Assembly (NCBI GenBank): GCA_038222225.1
Contig: JBBRHV010000001.1
Location: 13,864-77,863 of the forward strand
Source: Candidatus Omnitrophota bacterium
GTDB lineage: Bacteria > Omnitrophota > Gorgyraeia > Zapsychrales > JANLHA01
Direction of reading: 5' to 3'
DNA length: 64,000 nucleotides
Shown: piece by piece, positions 1 through 18,100 of the stretch
How positions within the stretch are numbered: position 1 is the first letter of the stretch
Layout: the number at the start of each line of letters is the position of its first letter
Notes under the pieces: model-generated
Databases searched by the model: none
What the model was told of the DNA's origin: nothing
The model's input: the letters and a program-made list of their open reading frames with translations, nothing else
Made by a program: the position numbers and the translations under genes

Positions 1-3000
1 GGGTCGGGATGACGTGAGTGATGCGTTTAAGGTGACAGTTGATGAGGCTACGCCGGCCTATCCGGTGAAGTGGAACACGCTAGAAACGCTGCCGGACGAC
101 CGGCAGGAGGTCGATCCTGTTTCTGGTGGAACCGTTGCCGCGGCCCTTACGGCGAATTTTGTGAATCCGCTTGAAGAGCGGTTCCGTCCCCAGGATGCCA
201 GTGGTTTTTACAATCAAGATGATCAAGCCGGCCAGTTTCCTTTGTTTTATAAAATCCGGGACCAGATTGAATTGCCAATGCTTGGTCTTGTCGCGCAGCC
301 CAATTCATTAAATTGTATGTGGTGGAACCGTACTGATAGTCCTTGTACGGAAGGAATTCTTCCGGATCCGGACGAACAGTTCGTGCTTCCTTATCTTCTG
401 GGAGCGAACGTGGAATATGGGGGCGTTGTTGTTTTGGCCGATACTTTAGCGCCGTTGCTTTATGAAGACTATGCCGGAGGGAACGTTTTTAGGGATATGG
501 GCTTTTATGGCGGTCCGGACAAGGTCGGGACGATTGGTTTAGAAAGGCTGTTTGCAGATGACACGATATGTGCCGAAGTGGCAGCCAGACCGGTTCTCGG
601 GCTTTTTGTCGGTGAAACGCCAGCACAAAGTATTCAGAGTAATGCGAATTTTCCCGGATTTAAGCCGGGAACAGATTTTTATTGCTCGGAAAATTATCCC
701 TATGATGCCCATTGCCGAAAAAATGATCCGGCTGGGGGATGTGTTGAAGTAAGAACCTTTCAGAGAATCGTCGATGGCGTGACCCCAATTCAGTGGGAAA
801 CGTATAGTCAAAGTTTTCCAGTTGATTGCTCTTGCGGGGAGACGGCCACCGCGCACCCCACCAAATGGCCAGACGACATTTTGGATTCTTTTTATCGTAA
901 AATCACAGAGCTAGTGGCGTTGACCAATGAATTGAACTCACTACAGGCGCGTAAGCTTTTGACTACGACATTTGCAGATTGGTACGATAACGTAGCGGAT
1001 TGGATTGAGCCTGCGTATAATAAAGCGGCTTGTGAAGCCGCGGCTAACCCGGCGACTGACCGGTCCTGTCTGGAAACGTACACGAAAAAAGAACGATGGG
1101 GACATCTTTGGGTTTTCCGGGAAGACTTTAGGGAAATTTTTCAGATATTAGAATCTTGGCTCAACAATGTGGAAGATATCACCGATGCTGTCCCGGTTCC
1201 AATCAGCTATCAGGGGGGCAGTTGCGGGGAGGCATGGTGTCTGCCCGATCCGGACTGTGTGATGCTGAAACATTCTAGCGGGGTGGGGCAAACCAAGGAA
1301 GCGCTTGGATATGATACGCCTGTTAAAGACGGAGTCTATGACGCCAATGATGATGGTTTGGATGCTGTTATCCAATGTATGGAATGGGCCGAGACGGCGC
1401 AAGTTGAAAGCTTGACGGTTCCAGGAACCTATTTGCCGGATGTGGGCGTCCAAGGGTACTATATCGCGTGCCTCAATCATTGCGGCACCGCGTATTGTGA
1501 TAATCTGCCGAGGCCGTTTGTTCCGGACTATAAGGTGATTACAACTCGACCGATCGATGCTGATTGGAGGATGCCTTTAGCGGCCGTTGATATGGGAGGT
1601 TACCAAAAATGTCTGAGCTCGATAACAGTGGATCAGTGCATGGCTGCTACCCCCGGAGATACGACGGAGTGCGCGGATACGCCGGGGTTTGCTAATTATG
1701 ATCCGCCAGACGTGGAATATACTGATATTATCGGTCAGTGGACGCCGTGTTTAGGCCTTCCAGTGGTAGCAACGGCGTGTGATGGCGGGACGCCTTGGGC
1801 GTCACTCCTTATTACCTGTGCGACCCCTCGGGAAGACATTGATTTGTGCATGAGAAACCGTTTGAATTCCTGTGGGTGGATTGTTCCCGGAGGAGACACG
1901 AGTTTTTATGACGCCATGATCTTATCGACGGATTGTTCTCCCGGGATTGCCGGGGTTGTGCCGGAGAGTCCTTATCGTAGGTGGCTGAAAGCGAACATTG
2001 CTGTTGCTGATCCTTTAGTGGTTGTGGCGAAGCTTGCGATGCGCAAAAAGTTTTTGATTGCTGTGCGCGATGAAATCGAAGAGGCCCGCAACGGATTTAG
2101 AGAGGCGTATAACCGGCTGACAGAATTTTTAGACAATGGGACAGTCTTTGGTACAGCCATGACATTTAATCAGCCTTCGAATCCTAATCCGTGTGAGGCC
2201 GATATGGAGGCTCAGATTGTCCTTCCGGGCACCCCTACGGGATATGCCGATACGGCTGCTCCAGCCGTTCCGTCCCCGTATCGCCGTCTGGACTCGTTAT
2301 GTGATACAGTACCCTGTAAGATAAGATTTCCATATTCTAACCGTACGGAGGTGCATGGAGGGACTTCATTTACTGGCACCAATCAAGATTCTCCGTCAGA
2401 AATGTTGATCAGGGTGCGGACAATGCAACAGCAGGCGGCCGATGTGGATTATCAAGACTCCGGGCTTCCGGCGTTTGCCATTTATGTTTGGCGGGGAGAC
2501 GCGGAGACGGATCCGGATTGGATGGCTAACGGCGTAATGCATGGGGAAGGGCTTTTGCACGCGGTTAAAGTAGACGCCAGGGTACCTCGTCGCTGTAGAG
2601 GCAGATGTGACTTTTATGGCCAGGGGCCCATGGAGTGGCCGAAAATTGAAACATTCACAACCGGCTTTTTAGGCTCTACGCGCTGTTATGAGCTCCGCAA
2701 TTATTTTGGGATGACCAAAGCGCGCGTCATTCGTTTTGACCAATCACCGAACATTTCAAAGCTTAAATTGTTTAATAAAATCCCTTTTGTTCTTCCGAAT
2801 CTTTCTCATCCGGATGTGGGGACTGGACAAAATATTACGGGAGGGAATGTATTTAGAGTTGGCGGCACGCCGGGGATCTGCGAACAGTATGTCGATCCGC
2901 TTATTATACAGCCGGGGATCTGCGAACAGTATGTCGATCCGCTTATTATACAGTTGATTGCAAACAATGTCCCTCCGACGGTAGATCCGGATTTTCAAAG

Positions 3001-3265
3001 CATACAACAAGCTTTTATGATCAATTGGCCGCCGACAGGCTTGGGCCAACCATGGGGCTCATTGACTGCGGCGCAGCAAGCTGATCTAACCTGCTGGAAT
3101 TTTGTGCATGAGAACATTCTAAGGTACGGCGTGGTCAGCCATAGCTGCGCAAATTATTATTGGGGGGGACCCGGAGGCGCTGGCTATGGCCAACAGGGGA
3201 TGAGGGTTAAATTTGCGCCTTGCAATCAGACATTTATTGAAAGCGGGGATCTGGATGTCCACTAA
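1..3265 (+). CDS. Cys-rich hypothetical protein, probably 5'-partial. The first in-window start is GTG at 14 and the frame is open back to base 2. There is no recognisable catalytic domain. It contains an in-frame 42-bp duplication.
   Basis: The ORF track gives 14..3265 (1083 aa). The frame has no stop upstream to the window edge. It shows coding-like composition and many Cys/Gly/Pro residues. It lies directly upstream of tad genes on the same strand. Confidence 0.65.
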   Translation, partial: GRDDVSDAFKVTVDEATPAYPVKWNTLETLPDDRQEVDPVSGGTVAAALTANFVNPLEERFRPQDASGFYNQDDQAGQFPLFYKIRDQIELPMLGLVAQPNSLNCMWWNRTDSPCTEGILPDPDEQFVLPYLLGANVEYGGVVVLADTLAPLLYEDYAGGNVFRDMGFYGGPDKVGTIGLERLFADDTICAEVAARPVLGLFVGETPAQSIQSNANFPGFKPGTDFYCSENYPYDAHCRKNDPAGGCVEVRTFQRIVDGVTPIQWETYSQSFPVDCSCGETATAHPTKWPDDILDSFYRKITELVALTNELNSLQARKLLTTTFADWYDNVADWIEPAYNKAACEAAANPATDRSCLETYTKKERWGHLWVFREDFREIFQILESWLNNVEDITDAVPVPISYQGGSCGEAWCLPDPDCVMLKHSSGVGQTKEALGYDTPVKDGVYDANDDGLDAVIQCMEWAETAQVESLTVPGTYLPDVGVQGYYIACLNHCGTAYCDNLPRPFVPDYKVITTRPIDADWRMPLAAVDMGGYQKCLSSITVDQCMAATPGDTTECADTPGFANYDPPDVEYTDIIGQWTPCLGLPVVATACDGGTPWASLLITCATPREDIDLCMRNRLNSCGWIVPGGDTSFYDAMILSTDCSPGIAGVVPESPYRRWLKANIAVADPLVVVAKLAMRKKFLIAVRDEIEEARNGFREAYNRLTEFLDNGTVFGTAMTFNQPSNPNPCEADMEAQIVLPGTPTGYADTAAPAVPSPYRRLDSLCDTVPCKIRFPYSNRTEVHGGTSFTGTNQDSPSEMLIRVRTMQQQAADVDYQDSGLPAFAIYVWRGDAETDPDWMANGVMHGEGLLHAVKVDARVPRRCRGRCDFYGQGPMEWPKIETFTTGFLGSTRCYELRNYFGMTKARVIRFDQSPNISKLKLFNKIPFVLPNLSHPDVGTGQNITGGNVFRVGGTPGICEQYVDPLIIQPGICEQYVDPLIIQLIANNVPPTVDPDFQSIQQAFMINWPPTGLGQPWGSLTAAQQADLTCWNFVHENILRYGVVSHSCANYYWGGPGGAGYGQQGMRVKFAPCNQTFIESGDLDVH
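2870..2953 (+). repeat. Perfect 42-bp tandem duplication (2 x ccggggatctgcgaacagtatgtcgatccgcttattatacag), in frame, duplicating the peptide PGICEQYVDPLIIQ.
   Basis: Direct reading gives copy 1 at 2870-2911 and copy 2 at 2912-2953. They are identical. Confidence 0.9.
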
Positions 3266-3307
3266 GAGTTTTCGAATAGCACTCTTGTTATTAGATCGAG
3301 AATTGAT

Positions 3308-3670
3308 ATGATACTATTACGGAATAAAAAAAATAAATCGCGAGGAGTAACAACCGTTGAATATTGCGCGCTGGTTGTCATGATTCTGTCTGCGTTTTGG
3401 TTTGGACTGCGCGGATACATTCAGCGCGGAATGCAGGGTCGCTGGAAGGCGGCCGGAGATGCCTTTGGGCAGGGAAGACAATTTGAGCCAAAGGGCGACG
3501 GCGCGGTTTCAAGAACAGAAGAGTGTTTTTATAGTGAAGAGGTCCACAAATGGGTTGATTTAGAATGTTTTGAAACGGATTGTGACTGCACGAAGGAAAA
3601 CGATGATGCTGATTATGCGACAACCTGTCTTGCATGTATGAACAAGCTCGCGTGTCTGTGCACTTTTTAG
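3308..3670 (+). CDS. tadE: TadE/TadG-like Flp-pilus minor pseudopilin (TadE-like N-terminal motif) with an unusual Cys-rich C-terminal half.
   Basis: The N-terminus is MILLRNKKNKSRGVTTVEYCALVVMILSAFWFGL. This matches the TadE-like signature, a basic leader followed by G-x-(T/A)-(T/A)-VE-(Y/F)-ALV and a hydrophobic helix. It is 120 aa and directly precedes tadB/tadC. Confidence 0.6.
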   Translation: MILLRNKKNKSRGVTTVEYCALVVMILSAFWFGLRGYIQRGMQGRWKAAGDAFGQGRQFEPKGDGAVSRTEECFYSEEVHKWVDLECFETDCDCTKENDDADYATTCLACMNKLACLCTF

Positions 3671-3700
3671 GATAAGGCTTATGGGGGGAGAAACCGATAG

Positions 3701-4558
3701 ATGTTTGTTTTGGCGTTATTTTTCTTTTTTACAACCTGCGTGATCGTCGGATATTGGATCTTACCTTCGGCATATCGTCAATCAATTGCTTTGAACCAAA
3801 AACGGGCGCATCAGCTGTCGTCGAAGCTCGAGAGGGTGATTCCCCGGGCGCAGATTAAGCAGGTTGTTCAGATGTATCTGCTGGCTCCGCTTTTTTTGGG
3901 GGGATTGTTTTATGCTTTTTTTCCTGAAAAAATGCAGGTTTATGGAGCGGTCATCGGAGTGGTCTTTGGTTTCATCTTCCCGTCGATCTACACACAGTTT
4001 TTAATTGCATCCAACAAACAAAAATTTGGCGACCAGTTGATCGATGTTTTGATGATCATGTCGAGCTCTTTCCGCGGGGGCTTAAGTTTAATGCAGTCCA
4101 TGGAAGCCGTTATTGACGAAATGGGAGATCCGTCCAATCAGGAGTTTTCCACCGTTTTAGGGGAAAACAAAATGGGGGTTTCTCTTGAAGAGTCCTTTGA
4201 GCATTTGTACAATCGTCAGCCGTCATCGTCGCTGCAGCAGATGGTCACGGCGATTCTTTTGGCGCGTGAAACGGGCGGGAACTTGCCGGCGATTTTTCAG
4301 CGGATTGTGGAGGTGATCCGTCAGCGCAAACGCATCCAGGGGCAGATTGAGACCTTGACGCTTCAGGGAAAGATTCAGGGCATTGTTATGGCGGCATTGC
4401 CGGTCGTGTTTTTCGCCTGGGTTTCAGGGATCAACCCGGACCATTTTAAGATCATGTATGATACGCCGGTTGGGCGCAATCTTTTGGTGGTGTCATTTCT
4501 GCTAGAAATTATCGGAGCGTTTATGATTTGGCAGATCAGCTCCTTAAAGGATTTTTAA
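3701..4558 (+). CDS. tadB: TadB-like Flp pilus assembly inner-membrane platform protein (T2SS-F / GspF-like domain).
   Basis: It is 285 aa with an N-terminal TM helix. The central segment DQLIDVLMIMSSSFRGGLSLMQSMEAVIDEMGDP...LARETGGNLPAIFQRIVEVIRQRKRIQGQIETLT is typical of the T2SSF domain. A C-terminal TM helix follows. A GGGGAG SD-like motif sits upstream. Confidence 0.75.
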   Translation: MFVLALFFFFTTCVIVGYWILPSAYRQSIALNQKRAHQLSSKLERVIPRAQIKQVVQMYLLAPLFLGGLFYAFFPEKMQVYGAVIGVVFGFIFPSIYTQFLIASNKQKFGDQLIDVLMIMSSSFRGGLSLMQSMEAVIDEMGDPSNQEFSTVLGENKMGVSLEESFEHLYNRQPSSSLQQMVTAILLARETGGNLPAIFQRIVEVIRQRKRIQGQIETLTLQGKIQGIVMAALPVVFFAWVSGINPDHFKIMYDTPVGRNLLVVSFLLEIIGAFMIWQISSLKDF

Positions 4559-4576
4559 TTTTATAAGAGGGGAACT

Positions 4577-5458
4577 ATGCTTTTTATTGCCGCGTTATTA
4601 TGGTTTTTGTGCGCCTTCAGTTTTGTCTTGGGGCTTTTTCCTCTGGAGATGGAGACCCGCCCGACATTGCAGGCCTTCGGCTATGAGTTGCGCCCGACGA
4701 AAAAAAGAAAAAATCCGTTAGCGATCATCCGCTTGATCGCGATGTTTAACCGGCCGTTTGTTGGGTCAGGCAAGCTGCGGGAAAAAATTCTTAAAGAACT
4801 TTCCATGGCCCATGTGAATTTAACGCCGGAGGAATTCTGGCTGTTTAAAGAAATTTCAATTGTGGCGATGCTGGTTTTTACATATCCTCTGATTGAGCCG
4901 GATTACCTGATCATGTGGCTGCTGTTATGTGTGTTTTTCGGATATATGCTGCCCGAGTATTGGCTGCGCGGAAAGATTAAAAAGGTGAAAGGCGTTATTT
5001 TGAAAGAACTTCCTGATGCCGTTGACCTTTTGGGATTGTGCGTGAACGCCGGGTTAGATTTTATGCTGGCTTTGAAGTGGGTTGTTGAAAAATCGCCGCC
5101 ATCGATCATGGTCAGTGAGATGAATATTCTGCTTCAGGAAATTAATGTTGGAAAAACCCGACGGGACGCCTTAAAAGCGCTGTCTTCCAAGTATGATTTG
5201 CCGGATCTCTCAACATTTACGCGTACTTTGATCCAGGCCGATAAAATGGGAACGTCGGTTTCCGAGGCGCTGATCATTCTTTCGGAAGACATGCGTCTGG
5301 CCCGTTACCGTCGGGGTGAACAAATGGCAATGAAGGCGCCGATGAAACTATTGGTTCCGTTGTTGTTTTTTATTTTTCCGGTGGTCGGTATTTTGGTCGG
5401 GGGTCCGATCTTCATTCAATTTATGACCGAGAATCCCATGAGTCGTATTGGTGGGTAA
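4577..5458 (+). CDS. tadC: TadC-like Flp pilus assembly inner-membrane platform protein (T2SS-F / GspF-like domain).
   Basis: It is 293 aa with an N-terminal TM. The segment LPDAVDLLGLCVNAGLDFMLALKWVV...LIQADKMGTSVSEALIILSEDMRLARYRRGEQMAMKAPMKLLVPLLFFIFPVV is T2SSF-like. An AGAGGGG sequence lies 5 nt upstream of the ATG. Only 18 bp separate it from tadB. Confidence 0.75.
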   Translation: MLFIAALLWFLCAFSFVLGLFPLEMETRPTLQAFGYELRPTKKRKNPLAIIRLIAMFNRPFVGSGKLREKILKELSMAHVNLTPEEFWLFKEISIVAMLVFTYPLIEPDYLIMWLLLCVFFGYMLPEYWLRGKIKKVKGVILKELPDAVDLLGLCVNAGLDFMLALKWVVEKSPPSIMVSEMNILLQEINVGKTRRDALKALSSKYDLPDLSTFTRTLIQADKMGTSVSEALIILSEDMRLARYRRGEQMAMKAPMKLLVPLLFFIFPVVGILVGGPIFIQFMTENPMSRIGG

Positions 5459-5586
5459 TCATCAAAAGGAGGGGCTTCTCCGGTCTGGTGCAGTCGATGT
5501 GGCAGTATTTGGTCTGATGAGTTCTTTGTTTTACCTCCAAAAAGAAAAAAGGGCCTGGCGGATTAGCGCACTTTTGTTTTGCGCGG

Positions 5587-5619
5587 AAGGATTCTTTTGT
5601 TTCAAAAGGAATCCTTTCG
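5587..5619 (+). terminator. Candidate hairpin downstream of tadC. The stem GGATTCTTTTG pairs with CAAAAGGAATCC with a one-base bulge and a TTT loop. It is followed only by TTTC.
   Basis: Near-perfect inverted repeat read directly. The weak U-tract lowers confidence that it is an intrinsic terminator. Confidence 0.35.
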
Positions 5620-5718
5620 GCAGAAGGCGCAATTTAAAGGTTTGCTGTTTGAGTAAAAAGGGGACCCTGTAATTAGAGAAGAGGGCTTGAGAAAAAACTG
5701 AAGTTTAAGCAAGATAAT

Positions 5719-5780
5719 TAATGTCCAAAAAATGAAAAATGTCCAATCAGAGAGATAAAAAAAGTTTTTAATGTCCAAAG
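5719..5780 (+). repeat. Three direct copies of (T)AATGTCCAA at 5719-5729, 5738-5747 and 5769-5780 in the leader of the giant gene. The reverse-complement TGGACA half-site recurs at 6011-6020, 6101-6107 and 6140-6146.
   Basis: Direct reading of the intergenic region. This is a candidate operator or iteron-like set of sites. Confidence 0.4.
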
Positions 5781-5920
5781 AATGTGTTAAATTCATGTGT
5801 TCCAGGGGGTTTTATTATATATAAGAAAACATTTATTTGTCCTCGAGAAAATAGTTTTCAAAAAGAACGCAACTCGCTAAAAACAAACAACTTGTTTCCA
5901 AAAAAAATCTTTGAAAAAAT

Positions 5921-5949
5921 TTGTTGCATATATTGACAGGTGGTATACT
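5921..5949 (+). promoter_or_regulatory. Sigma70-like promoter. The -35 is TTGTTG (5921-5926). A 17-bp spacer follows. The extended -10 is TGgTATACT (5941-5949).
   Basis: Sequence match to the TTGACA-17-TGnTATAAT consensus. It sits in an AT-rich intergenic region, 177 nt upstream of the giant-gene ATG. Confidence 0.45.
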
Positions 5950-6036
5950 TTAAACACCTAGCCCGGAGGAAAGTGAGTTAAATTTAAGAAACCGCTTTAC
6001 TTAAGTATTTTGGACAATTCAAAAAAATCTTCATAG

Positions 6037-6064
6037 ACCGCCTTTCCGGCGGTTTTCTTGTTTG
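6037..6064 (+). terminator. Intrinsic-terminator-like hairpin inside the 5' leader. Stem ACCGCC / GGCGGT, loop TTTCC, followed by TTTCTTGTTTG. It is a possible attenuator or the end of a roughly 100-nt leader or sRNA transcript.
   Basis: A GC-rich 6-bp stem plus a U-rich tract lie about 90 nt downstream of the predicted -10 and about 60 nt upstream of the ATG. Confidence 0.4.
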
Positions 6065-6125
6065 TAGAAATCCTTCCGGCTAAAAAACTAACGTACAATC
6101 TGGACATAAAAAAGTACCCACTTTT

Positions 6126-9100
6126 ATGAATGACAGAATGGACATAACTCCACAGGCCCTTCGTGCGGCTGCTTCTGAAGGTTCAGAGCAGGCGGAGATG
6201 CCTATGTCTGATAATGTCCAGAGTGATATATATATATCTAATCCTCAGCGGCCATTTAAAAGCCGTTTTAAGGGTTGGCTTCGTTTAGTTGCTGCTGTTG
6301 TGGTTTTTGTGTTCCTTCCTGAGCAAATCAGCTGGGCCATGAGTTACAATCCGGCGGTTTTATGGAGTGCGCAGCCGATTTCGCTGAGCGGGATGCCAAT
6401 TTCCGCACCAACCGGTCCGGCGTTAGAGCTTCAGCTTCCGCAGCAAGAAGCCTCCGAGATGCTGGCGACCAATATTCAGAGCCTTTTGAGCCGCGCGGCT
6501 CAGGAAGGTAATCGCAATTTGGAGATCCAAATTGCATCTCCCGACGAAAAAGAGTTCCGCAATATTGACGGGCTTCGTGTTTCAGCCAAAACGTCTTTAA
6601 GCCAGGAAAAGATTCAAGAGGCGGTCCGCTGGCTTCGTCAGCCGGAAATTCACCCGCTAAACTGCGGTGTTTTTGCCCTGTATGAATTCTTAAAATTAAA
6701 CAACACTCCGATCTCTCTGGAACAGGCCTCTTTATCGACGCTGTCCATTGACTTGCTTTCTGACATTGTCAAGCCGGGAGATGCGACGCTCAAGACGTCT
6801 TTGTACGCCATCGATAAAGTGGTTTCGCTTTATCAGCTGGAGTATGCGGTCATTAAGCTGGACCCCAAAGAGATCTTGAAACTGAACGCTCCTTTTATTG
6901 CGAATTTCGGAAAAGAACATTTTGTGACCGTCACGGCGCTTGATGAACAGGGCGTTCACATGCAGGACACGGGCGTCGCGCGAACGCTCTCTCAGCCGGA
7001 ATTTTTGGAAAATTTAAGCGGGTATGTTCTGATTTTAACAAAGAATATCCCGATTTCTGTTTCTTACCAAGATGTCAGTGACGTTGAAAAAGCCTTTGTT
7101 TGGGGCGACCGCTGGGTAGACCAATCCGACGAGTTGCCTGGATTATTAGGAGATGTCGGCGCAGCGTGGGCCCGCGCCGGTATGCAGGTTGCCATTTCGG
7201 TCGCTATTACGGTTGTGACCTTTGGTCTGGGATGCGCCATGGCCGTAGCGAGAGACGGCGTTCTCCTGGCCACCGAGCTTGCCAAACTCTTAATGCAGGT
7301 CATTGTTTCTGTGGCCCTGATCGGTATTTCGGAGCTGGTCAACACCATCAATCAGATTGCTGTTTTGAACGGCTGGTGGGATGAAGATGTCGGCTTCGTC
7401 ATAGGAATCGTTATCTCCACGGCCTTGTCGGTGGGGGCGGGCATGTTTGCCGGCGGCGCGGCGGGTTCCCTTGGGGCATCCGGCGCTACAGGAGCGGCGT
7501 CACAGACAGGGTCAGCCATCGGCGGCGCGGCGTTTGCCGGATTAGGCACGGGTATCTCAAATGTCCCTTTGACTTTTGCCAGAAGCTTTGCCCAAGCGCT
7601 CGTCGTTGCGATTCCCAAGGCATATCTTGCCAGGGAGCTGTATGAAATCATTGATATTGACGATCCTATTTTAAAATCAGCCGTGGTGGGGGTCTTGTCA
7701 TCCGTCGGAACCACCATTGGGTTGGTGGGGCTGAGTTTTGGCCTTGACCAAATTGGTTTAAATTCTGTTAATGGGTTTATGGGCATAAATGTCGCCGATT
7801 CTTTTACAGAATTTCTGAAAGATCTCGGTAAAAACGTGGGGCGCACCGTTGCGGCTAATGCGCTGGCGGTCGGGTTAAGATATCTCGCTTTGGAGATTGA
7901 TGATGAAACGTTTGCCGCCGACACCTTGGCGTCGCAGGCCATCGGACAAGTGGGGCAGGCCTTCGGCGGATGGATTTTTGATATGGCGGTGAGCGGATCA
8001 TTGCCGCAGCTTTTTGCCGGGGAGGTCCAGAAGGGGCAGATGTTTCAAGACCCTGGCTCTGAAAAGATGGAGGTGCAGGCGCAGGAGCTTTTTGTGACCA
8101 GGTCAGACGGAACGCCTGCTCGTCTTACCATGGAAGATCCGGGTCGATATACCTATACAGATACTGCAGGGGAGACGGTTTTTCTTAAGCCGGGGGAGGT
8201 GGTCGAGACAGTGCCATTGGAAAGAAACGACGCCGGTCAGTGGGTCCCGCAAGGGACTGCGGATAATAAGAAGGACGACAGCTCCTCTTCAAGCATGAGA
8301 ACTCCCACACAGTTTATGAATGTAAGGACCCATCAGCCGGTCCAAATCGCCGATTTCACAAAAGTTACGACACAGTATTATATAGCCGATAAAAAGGGGA
8401 TGCCGGCCTTTGTCGAGTATGATAAGGCAAGCGGGAAAATTACCATTCCCCAGAAAAGCGTTGACCAGTTGAAAGCCGATAATTTCCTGAATTTAGATGC
8501 TAACACCAAGTATTCTTTGCTCGAAGGAAAAGACAAGAATGGGAACCTGCAGCTGGGTTTAGGAAAAAGCTGGTTTTGGGGGACGCTGACGACAAAAACT
8601 TTGACGTCATTGGTGGGGGTTGCGTTGGCGTTCGGCATGGATCGTCTGGAAGATAAATTTATTGGTAAAGATGATCAGGGGCAGAAAGACAAGTTCCAAA
8701 CGCTCGGGTTTCGGCTGATGGCTTTTCTTGGAACGGCCTTATCAGCGGAAGCCACTGGAGCGCTTTCGCGTTCCATGTTTTCTGCTCCGAGTGGGACAGG
8801 TCTTAAGCCGGGTACGGATACGATCAGTCCATTTGGCGGTATTTTCATGAGGAGCGTAGAGAAGCTTGCATTAGGGATCAACGACAGCATGTTCAGAGCT
8901 AACGGCGCGATGCCGAAAGATTGGGATTGGAGTAATGGTGAAACGTTTAAGTTTGGGGGCGACGGAGTATCACGATATCGATATCAAGCAATAGATCAAA
9001 TGGTGCGTTTTTACGAAGGGGCCGGGGAAAGCGCCGGTTGGGGCTTGGATTCCTATTTTAAGATCAAAGACCTTCGTAAGCAGCTGGAAGGGGAGCAAGA

Positions 9101-12100
9101 GAAAGTAGACGGAAAGAAAAAAACCACGCAAAAATCCGGCGGGTTGTTGAACAGTATCAAAGGTCAGAACCTGTTCGGCGAAGGCGTGTGGAACGGCGGG
9201 AAGGTCGTTAAGGAAGAGAGCACAAAACTCACGGACGCACAATTCCGTTATTTTTTTGTTATGGGTGTGATTAACATTACAACGCAAGCTAAAAATGATT
9301 GGGCCATTGATCAGGTGAACACCAATCTGGCCGGAGGATTTGTCAACAGCGCGAGCGATCTTTATGTGGACGGAGGCATTGCCAAAAACATCAGATTATC
9401 GCTGGGATTTTTATTATCTGGTTTTAATAAACCGGAGATCACGCGGGATATTCTGGGGTTTGCTTATTGTGACTGGAAGGCCGTGCAGACCGGGCAGGTC
9501 GCGGTCAGTAAAGAGGTCTCCAAAAAATTAGTAGATCTGGGAGCAGACAAAGAGAACGCCAAAACAGCCCAAAAGGAAGCGCAGATAGTGGATCGGGCGG
9601 TTTGGGTTCTGTCGATTTCTGAGATGGTAGATTTGGGGAATAATCAGTACTCAGCTATGACCGGCTATAGCATGGTCGGCGTTGGGTGGACGGGATGGGA
9701 CATAGGAGAGAAGGATTTCGGGCGAGGGTTCAGTCATTTAAATTTAAAGATCAACCCTAAAATGGCAGAAAAATTAGGAATTTCAGAAAAGGATATTGAA
9801 AACGGCTTAAAACCAATTAAGGACGGAGAGCTTGCCGGGGAATTTGATAATGCTGCCTCAATCGAAGGGCTTGGGCCGAAGACGGTTTTAGGTATAAAAA
9901 ATGGATTAACAGCGCTGTTTGTTGAGCCGGGGTTAGATACGAACATTAATACATCTATTCGGTTGGCCGGATGGGATCAAGCCGAAGAGATTAATTTTTC
10001 GCGTGGTGCAGGCAGTGAAAGTTGGATGGGAGATGTTAAAAATCCGCATAATATTTCTCTTAAGGAAATGGGTGATCCCGCCAACCGCTTTGTGACCGAC
10101 AGAAAATATACGATAAGCTATCAAAAGGACTATCTTTTCCCGACGGTAAAGAACGCGACATGGTTGATCGGGCGGGTGAGTATAGGCCGGGAGACCTGGG
10201 GATATGAGCTCGACGCAGCAGACAAAACAAAACATCATCTGATGGAGCTGAAGAGCTTCTCAGGGATTAAACGAGCTTACGCAGGGGAAGGCGATCAAAA
10301 GATCTGGAAGCTGGAACAGCTGGATAAACCAAGGCTGAGTGTTTTCGGAATTAAGGGAAAAGTTTTTGGGGAAAAGTTGGCAGAAGCGTTCGCAAGTATG
10401 GGCATTTTTGATGCCGACAGCATTAATAAAGTTTTAAACGGCATCAATCCAGAAGATCTGAAAAGTCTGTACGACGCCGCCAGTGGCAAACTCAGCCCGC
10501 AGCAGAAAAAAGCTGGTTTGACGGCGCTCATTCAGAAGGCCATGGTGGATATTTTGGCTAAGGAAAGTTTTGAGTATAAGTCTCTGAAGGGAGCCATGGC
10601 AGAAGAGGGCGTTAGGATTGCCTTATTTGAAAAGTGGGGAGAAGACAAAAAGGTTGCGGAAAGCGGCCTGGCGCTTTTGGATTTGGGAGATAAACGCGAG
10701 GCTAAGAAAGGCGTGGACCGCTTTGTGTTCAGCCTTAATGCAGACAACCGGCTTTTGATGAATCCGCAGACATTGGATCTTCAAAAAAAGGAAGGCAAGA
10801 ATTCGGCGATAGACGGACTGGGAGTTTTTGAGATTGAAACTTTGGGGATTTCCAACGAAGATATTTTGCAGGGCCGGATAGCGATCGCTAAGGAAGGCGT
10901 CGGGGAAGCACAAATACAGGCCTATCAAGTGGCATTTCAGGCTTTGGATAAATCCGCCCGTCAGATCGCCGGGGTTCAGAATGCCCTGGAGACCATGAGC
11001 GCGCAAGAAGAGAGGGTCGCCAGCTTAACACAGCAGTTGCAGAATCCGGATCTTGACGCTGCGAAGAAAGAGGAACTGAAAAAAGAGATCGCGATCTTAG
11101 ATAGGGAAATAGGTTTGATGAAGGGCAATCTTCTGGTGGGGCATCAGGATATCGTGCAGAAGATTCGCAGCAAAGAAAAGGAAGTCGCTGATCTCATGCA
11201 GCAATGGAACAGTTCGGAATTCGGTTCCAAAAAGAAAGTGGCGCTGGAAGAAAAGATGGCTGCTCTGAATGTGGACATCGTTTCAATGAAAAAGAGCCTT
11301 CCGGAATATGTGCAGATTCTTGCGTCCAAAGACGGGGGTACGAAGGCAGCGTTAGGTAAAATAAAAGAAGAAGGCGCTAAGCTGGCTGCAAATTTGGCAG
11401 AGGTACAGAAGCTCAATCCGCTTACCGCCGGCGAAAAACGATTTGCCCTTGCCAGAATGTTCTTACCGACAAAAGAAGGAACGCATGCCACCTCTTGGGC
11501 AACCTCGTTTTTCCAGGAACGCCCGATCGCGAATTTAAGCTGGGAGTCTTTAAAGAAATATTATACCTATGAGAAAAAGGATGGGGTAACGCCTACTCCC
11601 GAAAAGGTCGCCTTAGGACTGGCGACTGTGGCAAGGGGTGAAAGCGCCAGTTCTCCTTGGGGAAACCTTGGCCAGACAGAAAGCCTTTCGGAATATGTTA
11701 TTAAAGGGAAGTGGACCAATATAAGAGAAACCGGCCTGGTTCATGTTCTGGACTATGAGCTTGGGGATATTCAAATGGGAGCCAATGGAGCCTTGGTGTA
11801 TGAAACCATCGGCACCGACGGAGCTATTTTAAATTTTGACCCGGCCACCGGGCGCGTGATGAAGTACGCTGCTGCTCAGGACGAAACGATTGAAGTTCCA
11901 ACAACGCTGAATAGTGATTTTAAGGAGAATTATGCGGGGACGTATCAAACGCATATTGTTTCGAATCAGAACGGCGTGCAGGTTGGAGGCGGCTCGATCA
12001 TCAGCCACGGGGACAAGTTCGGATGGTCTATCGGCCGCTTAGCGGATGTAGAAATTAAAAATAAGATCGCTGTTTATGATGGCATTAATTCTTATTATTT

Positions 12101-15100
12101 TGACCAGGAGGGCGGCAAGCCGGGGCAGTTCCGTGTCGCTAAAGAATATGAGCTGAAATACGACATGCTGAAATCCGGCTATACCAAAGAAGGCGTTAAG
12201 GACGGCGAAATCGCCCATCGGATGACCGCGGATGTTTTTGAAATGGCTTCGTTTGAAGTCGGCGGAGAAATCGGATATTCTTCGAGCGGAAAAATCTTCG
12301 GTTTCGACGATGCGTCGATCCAGCCGCTGTACCGTTTTGCTGAGGGAAAAAACGCCAAGCTGTTTGCCAAAGTCAAGAACGATCCGGCTGAGCGAGAATA
12401 CAAAGCTGAAAAGATCAATTTTAGTTTTTCAAACGATGGCGACGGGACGTTTGTATCTTTATCCAACTTTACGCTTGTCAAAGGTCAGCAAGACGCCAAA
12501 GCGGAAGGATCCGGCACGAGCGATATGAGTGTTGTGATGAAGGAAATTTTAGTCCCGATTCCGACCTTGTTTAACCGAAACACCGTGACTGCCCGTAAAA
12601 TGAGCAATGAAAATGAAGCGGCCGTTAAGCTCGCGGCCAAAAAACAATTTTCAAATATGAACGAGAAGATCGAGGCCATTGACGGAAACAATATTTTTGT
12701 TGTAACGGCGGCAGAAATGAAAGGCAGCGGAGCTTCTGAAACCGACACGGTTGTGCTGGTGACCGTTCCTGCTCATTCTGAGACGGACAAGCATGGGAAG
12801 ATCATAGAATATCCGGAAGCCTTGCGCCTTTATGTGCGCGAAGAGATTGCCAAAGATGTTTCTAAACTTTCCGATATCAAGATGATGACACACGAGGCAT
12901 TTTTGCAACAGAAGCAAATTGAGGTTGCGGCGGCGGACAATAAAACGAGAAAGGTTGCTTATTCAACAGCGGTTCGGCTGGACAACGAAGGGAACCCTCT
13001 TAAGGGATTGGATGACAGCGGCGCAGTAACGATGTTAGGAGATCTTTCACGTGAGGATTCCCCTTGGGGAAAAGAGATTGCAGCGCAGGCATCTCTGGTG
13101 ACCCGCATCATGGTGGTTGATCCAGCGGATATGCCGACCGGAGAAGGGATGGAGGGGGTCAACGCGGTTTTAAAAGGCAACATTTTGATTGTCACGCAAG
13201 CCGTGATCGACGATCCAAAAGAAATCAATGTGACCGCATTGTCGCATTTCGCTAAAGGAGAAATTATAACGGTGGTTAAAGCCGACGGCACCACCCGTAA
13301 AGTTCTTTTGAGCACGGAACTTTCTTCTGATGAGGGCAAGAAAGTTATCGAACTGGCCCAGCCGGCTTTAGATGCGCGAGCAGAGGCGCGGTTTGCTAAA
13401 ACTCATAAAAAAGGCGATGACCTGTTTGGGCGTAGTGTTTCTGAAGTCCGGGTGGTCGATGACGCGCTGATCGCCAACGGCCAGATGGCGCTGTCTTTTG
13501 AAGGAGATGTTTTGTATGTGGCAGAAGGGGCGCTGGCAAAAATGCAAGAAGCTCTACTGGGCACGCAGGAAACCGGAGAATTTTCGATGGGAGGACCGTT
13601 AGCGCTGGGAAACATCCGTGCTTCTCAAGCTGATCCTAACGGGGTTTATGCCAGCATTGCTTCAGGGCCTTTAGGCCGGATGATCTTAAATGAAAATAAA
13701 TTCACTCTTTATGAGGCTAATCTCAGCGAAGGGGATGTGCCGGGCGAGCTTAGAGCCAGGGACGCAAACGGAGTTCTGATGGGAGAGGCTTTGGTTGAAG
13801 ATGCCGGACCCAAGCGTTTGGCGTATATGTTTAGTCCGTTGCAGCAAGGATATCAGCCGGAGATCAGCGCAGATTTTAATATGAACGGGCGTCTTTTTGT
13901 TCCGGAGTCGAAGAAATTTTCAGTTAATATTTTTGAAGAAAAACAGGAATTAGCCAAGCCCCTGGGAGTTCCGGAAGGAATGCCGAATACGTTTTTGCCT
14001 CAGGCAAGCCGTTCCTTAACAAAATTTAGCGGGATTGCGGATTTTAAAGGCGGAGAGATCCAGATCCATGCCGGGTCAAGAGGCCAGAATGAAGCTTCGC
14101 AGACAATGGCCATAAAGGGAATCATTGACGGTAAAAATGAATGGGTTGCCACAACTCTCAAACAGACCAGTATGGATTTCTTTGATGACTTCGGTCGTAA
14201 ATCATTAAGCCAAGGCTTCTCGCAAGAATTAACGCGAGCCTTATCAAGTGAAAATTGGAAAGTAGCGGTCGATGAGGCGAAAGTGACGCCGGAGGCCGGT
14301 TTGCTGCGCTGGCATGGAGAGGATTTAAATCTGAACGGTTCTTCTGGTACGTTGTTCGCCAAGGTGACTTTGGCTGACGGAACAACGAAGGAATCAAAAG
14401 AGGTTCAGTACCGTCACACGTTTCTTGATCGGCGGTTGATGACCGATGCTGAATATGAAGTATATAAACAGGTTAATGCCGCTTCCCAGAATCAAGGGGG
14501 GGCGTTTGTCCCGCTGAGCGGCCGCGTTGCCGAAGCCTTTGTCAAATCGACGAAGGAAGGAGACCTTCCGATTGATCTGAAAGGTACTCAGATTTATAAG
14601 CGGCCCTTGAGTCAGGCCACGCGCGCGGCCTTGGCGATTTTGCGAAGCATTCTGCAGGATTACCAAGCCAATGGGACGGTTCACGCGAAGAAGGACATGT
14701 TCTTGCCAGGCATGGACAGCCTTGCTGCGGCTTTATCCGGCGCTTCTAAGGGAGAGCTGGACGCAATCATCAAAGAGGCGGAGCAGCTTTATGGGAGAGC
14801 GACACCGGATACGATTGTCAAGACCATGATTTATAAGAATTCTGACTTAGTAGCTATGATGTTGGATGTGGCTTTGGCTCAAGACGGCGCTGGGATGGCA
14901 TTTAAAAGCACTGCCGATGCCGACGGGCTTAAAAGCATGATTGAGACAGATGTTCATTTAGCAGTCTTAGGTAACGGCATGACCGGGATCAACGCTCTAA
15001 AGAATCTTGCTTTGAAGGCCGCGAACGGTGACATGGCAAAAGCCCAAGTAATGTTAAATGAGGTCTCGGCTGTTTTGAGCGGAACGTTCAGAGGGGCGGG

Positions 15101-18100
15101 AATGCTGAATGTTTTAAAACGCACGGAGTATAAGGATGCGGGCATATTAAATGAAATGATCCAGCTGGTTAAGCAAGGGAAAGATGGAAATAGCGGCTTT
15201 GGAGAGATGGAGGATTCCGCCAAATTAGCTGTGCTGGTTTTAGTTGCCGCGATGACTACGGGAAAGACAGACTTGATAAGCAATTTGGATAAGGATAATG
15301 CAGCTGTGAAGTTTTTAAAGCAGATGGGTTATCAACCCGGCATAGAGCTGACAAAAGTTGCCGAAGAATTTGCTAAGGCTTTTGATCTTTCAGATCCGGC
15401 GTTGACTGATAAGCAGAAAATGGAAAGGGCTTCGGGCCTTGCCCTTCTCACCAGTATCGGCAACACGATGAAAGGCGAAGATGATGCCGAGAATGCTTTT
15501 GAATTTATTATTCGAAATTCTGACGCGCTTAAAAACAGTAATTTGTTTTCTCCCAAGCAGGCAGTTTTGAATGAGTTATCTGAAAAAATAAATGTTCTTC
15601 AAAATTCAAGAACGAAAGACGCAAAAACAGGAGAGTTTAAACGTATAGGTTTGACTGTGTTTTCGGCAGATGCTTTGCAGGCTTTAGCGGATTTTGGCAG
15701 GGACCTTAGGGCATCAGTTGAATTGAACAACAAATTGACCGATGCCGGGATTTCTTTCGCGGATCGGGTTTCATTATTAGGAGAAGTCGACAAGCTGCAG
15801 ACGGAAAAAGGCGCAGATGGAAAAGCACTAAGCCCGATAGAGATCGTTGTGAGCTTGCTTGGCGGCGGGCAGAGGGCGCAAATTGCTAAAGTGTTCGGTA
15901 ATCAAGGACTGAATGAAACATTTTTGGATCAAGCGGTGCAGACCTATCAAACAACACAGCGCCAGGCGAAAGAAATAGAATTTATGAAGTTGGCGGGATT
16001 GATGATTTCAGAGGGACCGATCAATAAAGCAAATATTTCTGCGGATAAAGAAGGAGATCCTACTAAGGCGATCTTAAACGTTGACGCAACCAAAGGGCAG
16101 GGATTGTGGATCGCGTTTGGCGCTCCGCAGCAGAATCGTTTAGAAGCCTTTATGGCATCGCTTGCCGGCGGTAATGAATATGAGCTTTCAAAGGCTTTAG
16201 ATGCGAGCGGGATTTCAGTTAAGCAAAAGGAAGAGATTCAGCAGGCGGCTTCTGCGTTCAGTGAAGTGATGGCAGGAGCTGAATATACAGGTGTCAATCC
16301 GCAAGAGGCCTTTGCAAAACTTTTTGTCTCGAAACTTTCTGACGGTACCCTGCAGGCTTTGACCAGTGCAGGTGTGATTGATAAAATTGCACGGATTTCT
16401 AATCCAATCTATGACCAAAAGCAGCTGAATGTGAATTTCAATCCGCTCTTGGAAGGATCTGTGTTTACCAAAGGCGAGCCGGCAGGAACGCCTGGGATCA
16501 TGATTGCGCGCGATGATTTTTCGGGGATCAGTTCAGTTCTAAACAGCGGAGCAGTAACCATTAAGAACGGCATGTTCTTTATTCAAGAGGCAGGGCTTCG
16601 AACCACATCACCGATTTACGCGCCCGGCGTGATCGGACAGATGAAGAATGTGATCAATTATAAAGAAGGCGCGCCTGTCAGCGCTTCTTCGGTCGGCGTT
16701 CAGTATTCAGACATGATGACATCACAGGGCACAGAATGGAATGTTAATTACGGGCTGATCGCCATGCTTAAAGACGGTACTGCTTTCGGTACGTTTGATT
16801 TAGTAGGCGCAGATAAATATCAGCAGGATTATCTTTTTGTTCCGCAGGATTTTAAAGTGTCAGAAGGCTCGATGGCGTCTTTGGCGCAGGGTGAGAACGG
16901 TTGGACTCAGACCCGTTTTGCTGACGGCGCAACACTGAAAGGGGAATTTTTCGGCGGATATATGTCAAAGGATGGGCTTTTAAGCAGCGCAGTTTTGTAT
17001 GGAAAAGGCCCGTTCTGGGAACGGGTGAAAGAAACGCCGACTGGTTATACCCCACGCCAAACGAAAGATATGAATCTGGCAACTCTCGCCATGGTCGAAG
17101 GCGATAACATTATGGGCAATAGCAAGACTGATGTTAAAGAAGCGTATACCCGTTTTACGACGCCGGATAAAGACACGATAGTATCTGCCGTTCCGATGGA
17201 TATCGGACCGGATGGAAATAAAGCATATACGGCCATGGCTGAAAACGGCACGCGTTTGGTGTTTGCTCTTGGCTCCAAGGGCCCTGACGGTGAAGGCTAT
17301 TTTACCGGCATGCTTCGCCCGGATTTCAGACGGCCGGGAAGCTTGCATTTGTTTTCTAAGGATACAGTTCTTTACGATAAAAAAGGCAAGCTTGACCTGT
17401 CCAAGGCGATTATTCAATTTGTTAAAGGCCGCGGAAAATATCAAACCGATATTGGTAATTTCTTAAACGCAGCAGTGGATGAAATATTTTTATCAACAGG
17501 AGTTAAGCCGGGCGTGTCTGTTCGTGAGGGCATGTATGCTTACGGGCGGCTGCCTAGTTCAGAAGCAGTTATACCTAAAGGAAGAGAGGCGCCGGAACAT
17601 TTCGATACAACCGGTACACCTGCCGATGTGCTGGTTGGTCAAGTCTTTACGGAAGACGGCGGAAAATATTTCGGAAAAGGCTTTTTAGGGCGGTTTACGG
17701 ATAATGCGTTTGTTGGTCTTGCGAAGCAGCGGTCATTTCATGGCGATCTGGCGCAGAACGATATTCCTAATTGGCTTGGTTTTGAAGAAAAAGGGCTACA
17801 GGTTTTGGGTGAAGGAGGACAATGGCTTGGCGTAAGCAAGGATACATATAAGGCAAGAGTCTATCAGATATCGCTTGCCAAAAAAGAAGGCAAAGAAGAT
17901 GTCTATGTTCCTATTCTTATGAAGGCAATGACGTTTGCAAATGGCTCAGTAAGGCGGGAATTTAGACTGCAGGGCAAGGAGAAAAAAACAGATGCAGAGT
18001 ATGGGAGTCTTGTATTCAAGAAATTTGAATTGAATTCTCTTGTCGCAAAACTTGAGGCGATAATGCCTAAAGAGAATGTGGAGAAAAAAGACAACAGCAT

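Follow-up and report, generated by a model that had tools for sequence, protein, structure and literature searches.

Two fast-diverging cysteine-rich proteins in a Tad-like locus next to a giant gene of Candidatus Omnitrophota

The DNA studied here is a stretch of 64,000 nucleotides (nt) from Candidatus Omnitrophota bacterium (contig JBBRHV010000001.1 of assembly GCA_038222225.1), which we call the window. Its first part, positions 1-5458 on the forward strand, holds four co-oriented and tightly spaced genes, separated by gaps of 42, 30 and 18 nt. They encode a large cysteine-rich protein, a pilin-like protein of 120 amino acids (aa) that is also rich in cysteine, and two platform proteins resembling TadB and TadC of Tad-type pilus systems. 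An intergenic region separates tadC from a giant gene, whose frame is free of stop codons from position 6084 to the end of the window (at least 19,305 codons). The features are as follows:

2..3265, forward strand: 3' part of the large cysteine-rich gene, 1087 codons, with the frame open at the left edge of the window and the stop codon at 3263-3265
2876..2959, forward strand: perfect tandem duplication of 42 nt within the large gene, repeating the peptide ICEQYVDPLIIQPG
3308..3670, forward strand: gene of the 120-aa cysteine-rich pilin-like protein (orthologue and paralogue alignment)
3701..4558, forward strand: TadB-like platform gene, 285 aa (Pfam T2SSF, E = 7.9e-18)
4577..5458, forward strand: TadC-like platform gene, 293 aa (Pfam T2SSF, E = 6e-12)
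5459..6125, forward strand: intergenic region between tadC and the giant gene, with repeats, a -10-like box, a leader and a hairpin
6126..63998, forward strand: giant gene, at least 19,291 codons from the probable ATG at 6126, running past the end of the window

An earlier, sequence-only reading of this DNA had described the order large cysteine-rich protein, small pilin-like protein, tadB, tadC, and both this order and the coordinates were borne out. The cysteine motifs that it quoted were located as well (CSCGE at nt 827-841, CDCTKE at nt 3581-3598 and CLACMNKLACLC at nt 3626-3661). Its length of 1083 aa for the large protein had to be abandoned. No stop codon occurs between position 2 and the GTG at position 14, and hence the open reading frame (ORF) is cut by the edge of the window. 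The full-length protein, P0001, has 1519 aa and is 100% identical to the part in the window, which represents its C-terminal 72%.

Cysteine-rich proteins of the locus

Cysteine makes up 37 of the 1087 residues of the large protein encoded in the window (3.4%) and 9 of the 120 residues of the pilin-like protein (7.5%), compared with 0.35% in TadB, 1.0% in TadC and 0.08% in the giant ORF (16 of 19,305). Against a background of 1% cysteine, the binomial tails are 3e-10 for the large protein and 4e-6 for the 120-aa protein. These values confirm the earlier impression that both proteins are unusually rich in cysteine. The homologues of the large protein are likewise cysteine-rich: 42-72 cysteines were counted in each of the homologues first checked (11/11), and the median over 101 family members is 3.7%. 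Because the homologues and the family median share it, the cysteine richness of the large protein is not due to chance. Cysteine is the most conserved residue type of the family; of the 80 alignment columns with the highest conservation, 20 are cysteine. Many of the cysteines are invariant or nearly so, and 72% of the members have an even number of them.

The family was delimited by searching 1.84 billion protein representatives with a profile. At a cut-off of E <= 1e-3 it has 328 members, of which 187 also pass E <= 1e-30; very few close relatives of the large protein were found in a word-indexed protein database. The members range in size from 1075 to 1739 aa, most of them having 1100-1700 aa. 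Conservation is best in the N-terminal 250 aa and in the C-terminal ~250 aa, and there are lineage-specific insertions, including a Big_7 immunoglobulin (Ig) domain in one member. We also considered that the large gene might be a spurious frame or one left open by chance, which its conservation in six related loci and in about 330 representatives rules out. The 42-nt duplication at 2876-2959, which includes a family-conserved cysteine, was found in neither P0002 nor P0003, two homologues; recent slippage or an error of the assembly could account for it.

Sequence searches of Pfam, NCBIfam and the PDB gave no match for the window protein, for P0001-P0003 or for a 57-sequence profile, and none that recurred in 36 family members. 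In particular, Pfam gave no match to vWA, PF13400 (TadE/G-like) or PF07811 (TadE) in these 36 members. An AlphaFold2 model of the 1087 residues, calculated from the 57-sequence alignment, reached a predicted local distance difference test score (pLDDT) of 69.6 and a predicted template modelling score (pTM) of 0.68. The model shows long bundles of helices with an alpha/beta domain at the C-terminus, and the helical bundle bears a weak resemblance to ClyA-type pore formers (ClyA/Nhe/Ahl/Xax fold). Foldseek searches with the model gave no convincing fold match (E > 4). The vWA or adhesin tip that the sequence-only reading had considered for this protein did not appear in Pfam, in the PDB or in the fold searches, nor did the C-terminal beta-propeller of PilY1/PilC; structure prediction provided a moderately confident model with a fold that has no known match. 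Since its fold is unrecognised, the large protein cannot be assigned to TadG, to PilY1 or to an adhesin family. It represents an undescribed, unannotated family of Omnitrophota without a recognisable fold.

In the N-terminus of P0001, which lies upstream of the window, a basic leader and a GQ junction precede a hydrophobic helix that lacks glutamate at position +5 (Glu5), and a second hydrophobic hairpin follows. In all 36 members a basic leader is followed by G-Q, a hydrophobic helix without Glu at +5 and a second hydrophobic stretch whose length suffices for a helical hairpin, so that the three N-terminal hydrophobic segments are kept (36/36). The sequence after the third segment is acidic. 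According to the positive-inside rule, the basic N-terminus, the three hydrophobic segments and the acidic stretch behind them indicate that the large protein is likely oriented N-in/C-out, with its cysteine-rich bulk of ~1350 residues outside the cytoplasm.

Two further loops were noticed in this family. Residues 199-213 of P0001, upstream of the window, include a DxxDxDxDG motif (PDVLDFDNDG; motif at 205-213) that is invariant or nearly so in the family and that we take to look like a calcium-binding loop. A second loop, FDxNxNGxxxxxE, at about residues 440-455 of the window protein, has an EF-hand- or dockerin-like look; it occurs in most members and is degenerate in the window's own clade. 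Both loops are possible calcium sites.

The 120-aa protein starts with KSRG/VTTVEY followed by a hydrophobic helix, and thereby has the G/xxxxEY processing motif of Flp-type pilins. Its C-terminal half shows the cysteine pattern C..C..CxC..CxxC..CxC. The motif YIQRGMQGRWKAAGD (Y-I-Q-R-G-M-Q-G-R-W-K-A-A-G-D..G-Q) is common to this protein and to upstream paralogues of 107 and 109 aa. On these sequence features we regard it as a paralogue of the Flp-type (class III signal) minor pilins of the locus, with a cysteine-rich C-terminal extension. Its match to Flp_Fap is weak (E = 0.062, below the gathering threshold), and no PDB sequence relative was found. PF07811 gave no match at E <= 1 for the 120-aa protein or for five orthologues; the sole weak TadE match (E = 0.02) belongs to another gene, which encodes a protein of ~95 aa upstream of the large gene in a related locus (L011; related loci are denoted by L numbers). 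Hence, the earlier term 'TadE-like' was right in kind, as the protein resembles a Tad-type minor pilin, and wrong as to family. A small cysteine-rich pilin-like gene between the large gene and tadB is kept in the relatives, with no gene called at this place in L009, and the cysteine positions are kept only in part between orthologues.

The proteins of the locus differ strongly in their rate of divergence, as illustrated by the amino acid identities with three related loci:

TadB: 91% (L004), 67% (L003), 67% (L006)
TadC: 92% (L004), 67% (L003), 71% (L006)
Large cysteine-rich protein: 50% (L004), 33% (L003), 26% (L006)
Cysteine-rich pilin: 57% (L004), 42% (L003), 48% (L006)
N-terminus of the giant protein: 58% (L004), 44% (L003), 40% (L006)

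The divergence of both cysteine-rich proteins is about equal to that of the giant protein and far greater than that of TadB and TadC. Such fast divergence would fit exposure to a changing partner. Because their rate is like that of the giant protein and unlike that of the machine core, the large protein and the cysteine-rich pilin may well be exposed proteins that contact a partner.

A conserved operon in related loci

Six related loci keep the same distal block, in which a protein of ~430-655 aa and a protein of ~90 aa precede the large protein, the cysteine-rich pilin, TadB, TadC and the giant gene. The large protein shows 26-57% identity across these six loci. Among more distant relatives, the block was read in L006, L007, L009, L010 and L011. 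The named related loci are metagenome-assembled genomes of Candidatus Omnitrophota, one of which is labelled 'uncultured Planctomycetales'. In the relatives, housekeeping genes (gyrA, CN hydrolase, Ldh) precede the operon, and its genes occur in the following order:

1: SurA-like peptidyl-prolyl isomerase (Rotamase)
2: RcpC
3: secretin with TonB_C
4: TadZ::TadA, 718-720 aa
5: DUF192
6: 77-78-aa gene on the opposite strand
7: 560-574-aa protein with a weakly helix-turn-helix (HTH)-like N-terminus
8: ~50-aa Flp-like pilin
9: 64-70-aa class III signal protein
10: five proteins of 100-140 aa
11: 430-655-aa protein
12: ~72-111-aa protein
13: large protein
14: cysteine-rich small protein
15: TadB
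16: TadC
17: giant ORF (24,214 aa in L003)

The upstream machine genes were read in L002, L003, L004 and L008, and they are inferred by synteny for the genome of the window. Their best matches are of the Tad/Cpa type. The RcpC homologue of L008 scores 89.7 bits with the CpaB model TIGR03177, above its cut-off of 71. The best NCBIfam match of the relatives' ATPase is the TadA family TIGR03819, with 325 bits, which is below the cut-off of 373; the GspE model TIGR02533 gave this ATPase 39 bits against a cut-off of 630. A TadZ::TadA fusion with T2SSE and ParA domains is present in L002, L003, L004, L008 and L010. Within the window, TadB and TadC are two paralogous single-domain T2SSF proteins of ~290 aa, and both score far below the GspF and PilC model cut-offs of NCBIfam (GspF TIGR02120: 15.9 bits against a cut-off of 424). 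The 90% cluster of TadB is named 'type II secretion system F family protein [Candidatus Omnitrophota bacterium]'. The set that characterises type II (Gsp) secretion, with one two-domain GspF of ~400 aa, GspE and GspG-K, was not found, the platform being split in two.

About 10 proteins per locus in the relatives have a basic leader, a class III signal of the form [GA]-Q-x3-E-[YFL] and a hydrophobic helix. They include Flp-like proteins of ~50 aa (51-52 aa) with KGQ(N/T)I(V/I)EY, whose Flp_Fap matches are weak and below the gathering threshold. Besides this ~50-aa Flp-like major pilin, each locus encodes ~9 further class III signal proteins, the minor pilins.

The sequence-only reading had named a Tad-type (type IVc) system, and this assignment is supported by TadB and TadC in the window and, in the operon of the relatives, by RcpC/CpaB, a CpaC-type secretin, TadZ::TadA and Flp-like pilins. 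The reading was to fall if no tadA or flp lay nearby; in the relatives, tadA, the secretin and flp are all present upstream of the block. Its description of the arrangement as atypical stands as far as the order differs from flp-tadV-rcpCAB-tadZABCDEFG, whereas within Omnitrophota this order is the standard, published one. The adjacency of pilus genes and giant gene that it pointed out is kept in every relative whose contig reaches far enough.

Some additional features of the upstream genes were observed. The TadZ::TadA protein of ~720 aa (L004 930-3092) shows 63-99% identity, mostly 65-79%, among the 120 clusters listed (P0016-P0135), and nearly all of the named clusters among those listed are annotated as Omnitrophota. 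The call in L009 is shorter (684 aa, with no ParA domain listed), which is probably a start-site difference. The secretin (L008 8108-9949; L004 1-888; L002 1-874) has T2SS-T3SS_pil_N and Secretin domains and a C-terminal fusion to TonB_C (E = 2.5e-15). The TonB_C fusion is unusual for secretins of the RcpA/CpaC type, and it might tie the outer-membrane channel to peptidoglycan or another partner.

The giant gene and its upstream spacer

Orthologous giant ORFs follow tadC in L003, L004, L006 and L010, and in L011 an ORF of 869 aa runs to the end of the contig. The giant protein of the window has a Peptidase_C39 match at residues 238-321 (E = 1.5e-8). Its low cysteine content is in sharp contrast with the cysteine-rich proteins encoded just upstream.

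We compared the spacers between tadC and the giant gene in six loci (window 5459-6125, L004 16636-17230, L003 16282-16800, L006 8910-9400, L010 16275-16960 and L011 13203-13560), and no Rfam match was obtained for this spacer. All of them (6/6) have an extended -10-like box, TGnTATACT, of which the window copy is TGGTATACT at 5941. A conserved leader, CTAGCCCGGAGGAAA, lies upstream of the giant gene in the window, L004 and L003. At 6035-6055, about 70 nt before the giant ATG, the window has a terminator-like hairpin (GACCGCC..GGCGGTT followed by a T-run). Such a hairpin precedes the giant ATG in four loci, with compensatory changes in L003 and with a different hairpin at the same relative place in L010. 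RNAalifold suggests that the 3' arm of the hairpin may instead pair with AACCGC further upstream, and in this model the alternative pairing could act as an antiterminator. The conserved box, leader and hairpin point to a promoter of its own and an attenuator-like leader for the giant gene (>58 kb). The text of West-Roberts et al. (2023) uses none of the terms 'promoter', 'terminator' and 'operon'.

The spacer of the window further contains the heptamer ATGTCCA at 5721, 5739 and 5771 on the forward strand, upstream of the -10-like box, and its inverted form TGGACAT at 6101, near the start codon. ATGTCCA/TGGACAT is found at the equivalent place in L004, L003, L006, L010 and L011, as a single copy in L010. 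The repeats are a candidate regulator site, and one possible regulator would be the 560-574-aa protein with the HTH-like N-terminus.

Possible roles and comparison with known systems

We consider it somewhat probable that positions 1-5458 are the distal end of a Tad-like (type IVc) operon upstream of giant genes, in which the large protein is a TadG/KilN-like accessory belonging to a tip or priming module. TadB and TadC are the inner-membrane platform of a machine whose remaining parts are, in the relatives, encoded in the same operon. The 120-aa protein would be the last of the minor pilins, with a small knot at its C-terminus that disulfides, or possibly metal, would hold together. The 1519-aa protein would be anchored by its pilin-like, Glu5-less N-terminal helix and the hydrophobic hairpin, with ~1350 residues facing the periplasm or the exterior and stabilised by many disulfides. 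Together with its neighbours of ~500 aa and ~90 aa and the cysteine-rich pilin, this large accessory would make up a module that primes a short Flp filament or forms its tip, and the filament would serve contact with a host or prey cell, bring the giant protein to the cell surface, or both. In position and architecture, the large protein seems to resemble TadG/KilN, the large minor pilins found in the Tad systems of predators. The earlier proposal of disulfide-stabilised pilus-tip components is a reasonable inference by analogy, which fits the predicted extracytoplasmic topology and the likeness to TadG/KilN.

Several results weigh against this interpretation. No sequence or profile link of the large protein to TadG, TadE or KilN was obtained. 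An hhalign comparison of its N-terminus with the N-termini of the pilins of the locus aligned 14 columns in register, covering the basic-GQ junction only, at 15% probability. The conserved extra hydrophobic hairpin argues against extraction into a filament and favours a membrane-resident role. No prepilin peptidase (TadV/CpaA, Peptidase_A24 type) was found among the genes from the peptidyl-prolyl isomerase to the giant gene (~19 kb) in L008 and L003; it may be encoded elsewhere in the genome, as is reported for Bdellovibrio. The upstream machine genes of the window genome rest on synteny with the relatives. Finally, co-transcription of the Tad genes with the giant gene is doubtful, because the DNA between tadC and the giant ATG contains both a promoter-like box and a hairpin of the terminator type.

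The same genes could serve a different purpose, not as an adhesive pilus but as a pseudopilus-driven secretion system with a function like that of the type II secretion system (T2SS), dedicated to the export or display of the giant protein, in which the large protein is a GspK-like cap or a cargo adaptor on top of a short pseudopilus. The number of minor pilins (~9) is unusually high, and the N-terminus of the large protein combines a basic-GQ junction with the lack of Glu5; the tip pseudopilin GspK of the T2SS likewise lacks Glu5. The giant protein, which is poor in cysteine and has many transmembrane (TM) segments, would need an export route, and the locus invariably adjoins the giant gene, in line with a 2026 preprint in which secretion or pilus genes flank 13 of 14 giants. 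However, the recognisable parts are of the Tad/Cpa and not of the Gsp type, with CpaB above its cut-off, a TadZ domain, a TadA-like ATPase and the ~50-aa Flp-like pilin; in place of a single GspF of ~400 aa there are two platform proteins of ~290 aa with one domain each. Moreover, passage of a protein of >2 MDa with many TM segments through a secretin is without supporting evidence, and the giant gene seemingly has its own promoter and leader. We regard a dedicated secretion system as rather unlikely. We see still less reason to assume that the large protein stays in the membrane as a scaffold or alignment factor on the periplasmic side of the machine and is no component of a tip or adhesin, with cysteines that simply stabilise a large periplasmic structure. 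The hydrophobic segments present in 36/36 members should hold the protein in the inner membrane, and its best-conserved ends are as expected for contacts with the machine. Yet the protein equals the giant protein in its rate of divergence, which is much higher than that of TadB and TadC, and its wide size range and lineage-specific insertions, such as the Big_7 domain, are more typical of exposed modular proteins. The conserved hydrophobic hairpin is the main difficulty for a location at the tip and would fit a scaffold role.

It is similarly improbable that the cysteine clusters are zinc or iron sites and not disulfides, the candidates being CxC...CxxC in the pilin and the CC/CxxC runs of the large protein. 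The spacing CDC-x12-CLAC-x5-CLC of the 120-aa protein resembles that of zinc knuckles, and one orthologue has a very weak match to a CXC zinc domain (E = 0.14). This match is far below threshold, however, and the predicted extracytoplasmic location, the even cysteine number in 72% of the large-protein members and the partly kept cysteine positions of the pilin all speak against metal sites. With as little confidence, we can imagine that the large-protein family adapts a Tad-derived machine to a job that no known type IV filament system performs, either by capping a pseudopilus that hauls the multi-megadalton giant protein to the cell surface or presents it there, or as a membrane-inserting tip used against prey. 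The weak ClyA-type resemblance of the helical bundle would fit a membrane-inserting tip. If a capping or membrane-inserting role were true, the family would stand for a new class, defined by function, among the accessory proteins of type IV filaments.

Omnitrophota are abundant, uncultured and ultra-small, and they are thought to be predators or parasites. The Tad-like locus is the prime candidate machinery for their attachment to hosts and for the handling of their proteins of 20,000-150,000 residues. Because the association of Tad genes with giant genes has already been recognised in the literature, the window is mainly one more example of it. What is new here is the family of cysteine-rich large proteins and the cysteine-rich terminal pilin as unannotated, fast-evolving parts of the locus, with an unrecognised fold in the large protein. 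Both are obvious candidates for the end of the machine that contacts the host or couples to the giant protein.

West-Roberts et al. (2023; bioRxiv 10.1101/2023.11.21.568195) describe a conserved locus upstream of Omnitrophota giants, with gspD, gspE, gspF, rcpC, a Rotamase_2 peptidyl-prolyl isomerase and many class III signal genes, and they also report N-terminal C39 domains in these giants. Seymour et al. (2023; PMC10066038) regard giant ORFs and Tad complexes as markers of symbiosis or predation, describe Tad complexes of Velamenicoccia, note that the Tad complex of V. archaeovorus LiM is expressed in co-culture, and group the TadB/TadC of Omnitrophota with those of Bdellovibrionales. These published loci are of the same phylum, position and components as the one studied here, with no essential difference. 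The large cysteine-rich family and the cysteine-rich terminal pilin are not singled out in the accessible parts of the published accounts of Omnitrophota, in which the word 'cysteine' has 0 occurrences.

Among systems of other bacteria, the Kil Tad pilus of Myxococcus xanthus has tip complexes of KilL, KilM and KilN, which are TadE-, TadF- and TadG-like (Herrou et al. 2025, PMC12075869). KilN is a very large pilin-like protein with an extra domain without PDB homologues, formed by long helices and a beta scaffold (PMC12075869). The locus studied here shares with Kil, which belongs to a predatory bacterium, a Tad-type machine, several minor pilins and one very large protein without a PDB match, whose model is of the same general make-up. 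The Omnitrophota protein has no demonstrated sequence relationship to KilN and differs from it in being far larger (~1100-1700 aa), Glu5-less and cysteine-rich and in having an extra hydrophobic hairpin. The Omnitrophota locus also differs from the Kil locus in its ~10 pilin-like genes and in adjoining a giant gene. The Tad nanomachine of Bdellovibrio bacteriovorus has a TadZA hybrid ATPase and no TadV in its tad loci, and its TadG tip protein is needed for full predation efficiency and prey invasion (bioRxiv 10.64898/2026.07.08.737194). The Omnitrophota relatives resemble it in the TadZ::TadA hybrid and in the lack of a prepilin peptidase in the tad locus, whereas the tad genes of Bdellovibrio are dispersed over several loci, with no giant gene alongside.

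Finally, the Tad/Flp system of Aggregatibacter and the Cpa system of Caulobacter share with the Omnitrophota locus the single-domain pair TadB/TadC, a TadA-type ATPase, TadZ, RcpC/CpaB, a secretin of the RcpA/CpaC type and Flp-type pilins with G/xxxxEY. Compared with these canonical systems, the pilin genes of Omnitrophota sit between tadA and tadB, tadZ and tadA are fused, and the secretin is fused to TonB_C. No tadV, rcpB or tadD was recognised in the Omnitrophota locus, which has many more minor pilins, and the position of TadG is taken by the unannotated cysteine-rich proteins.

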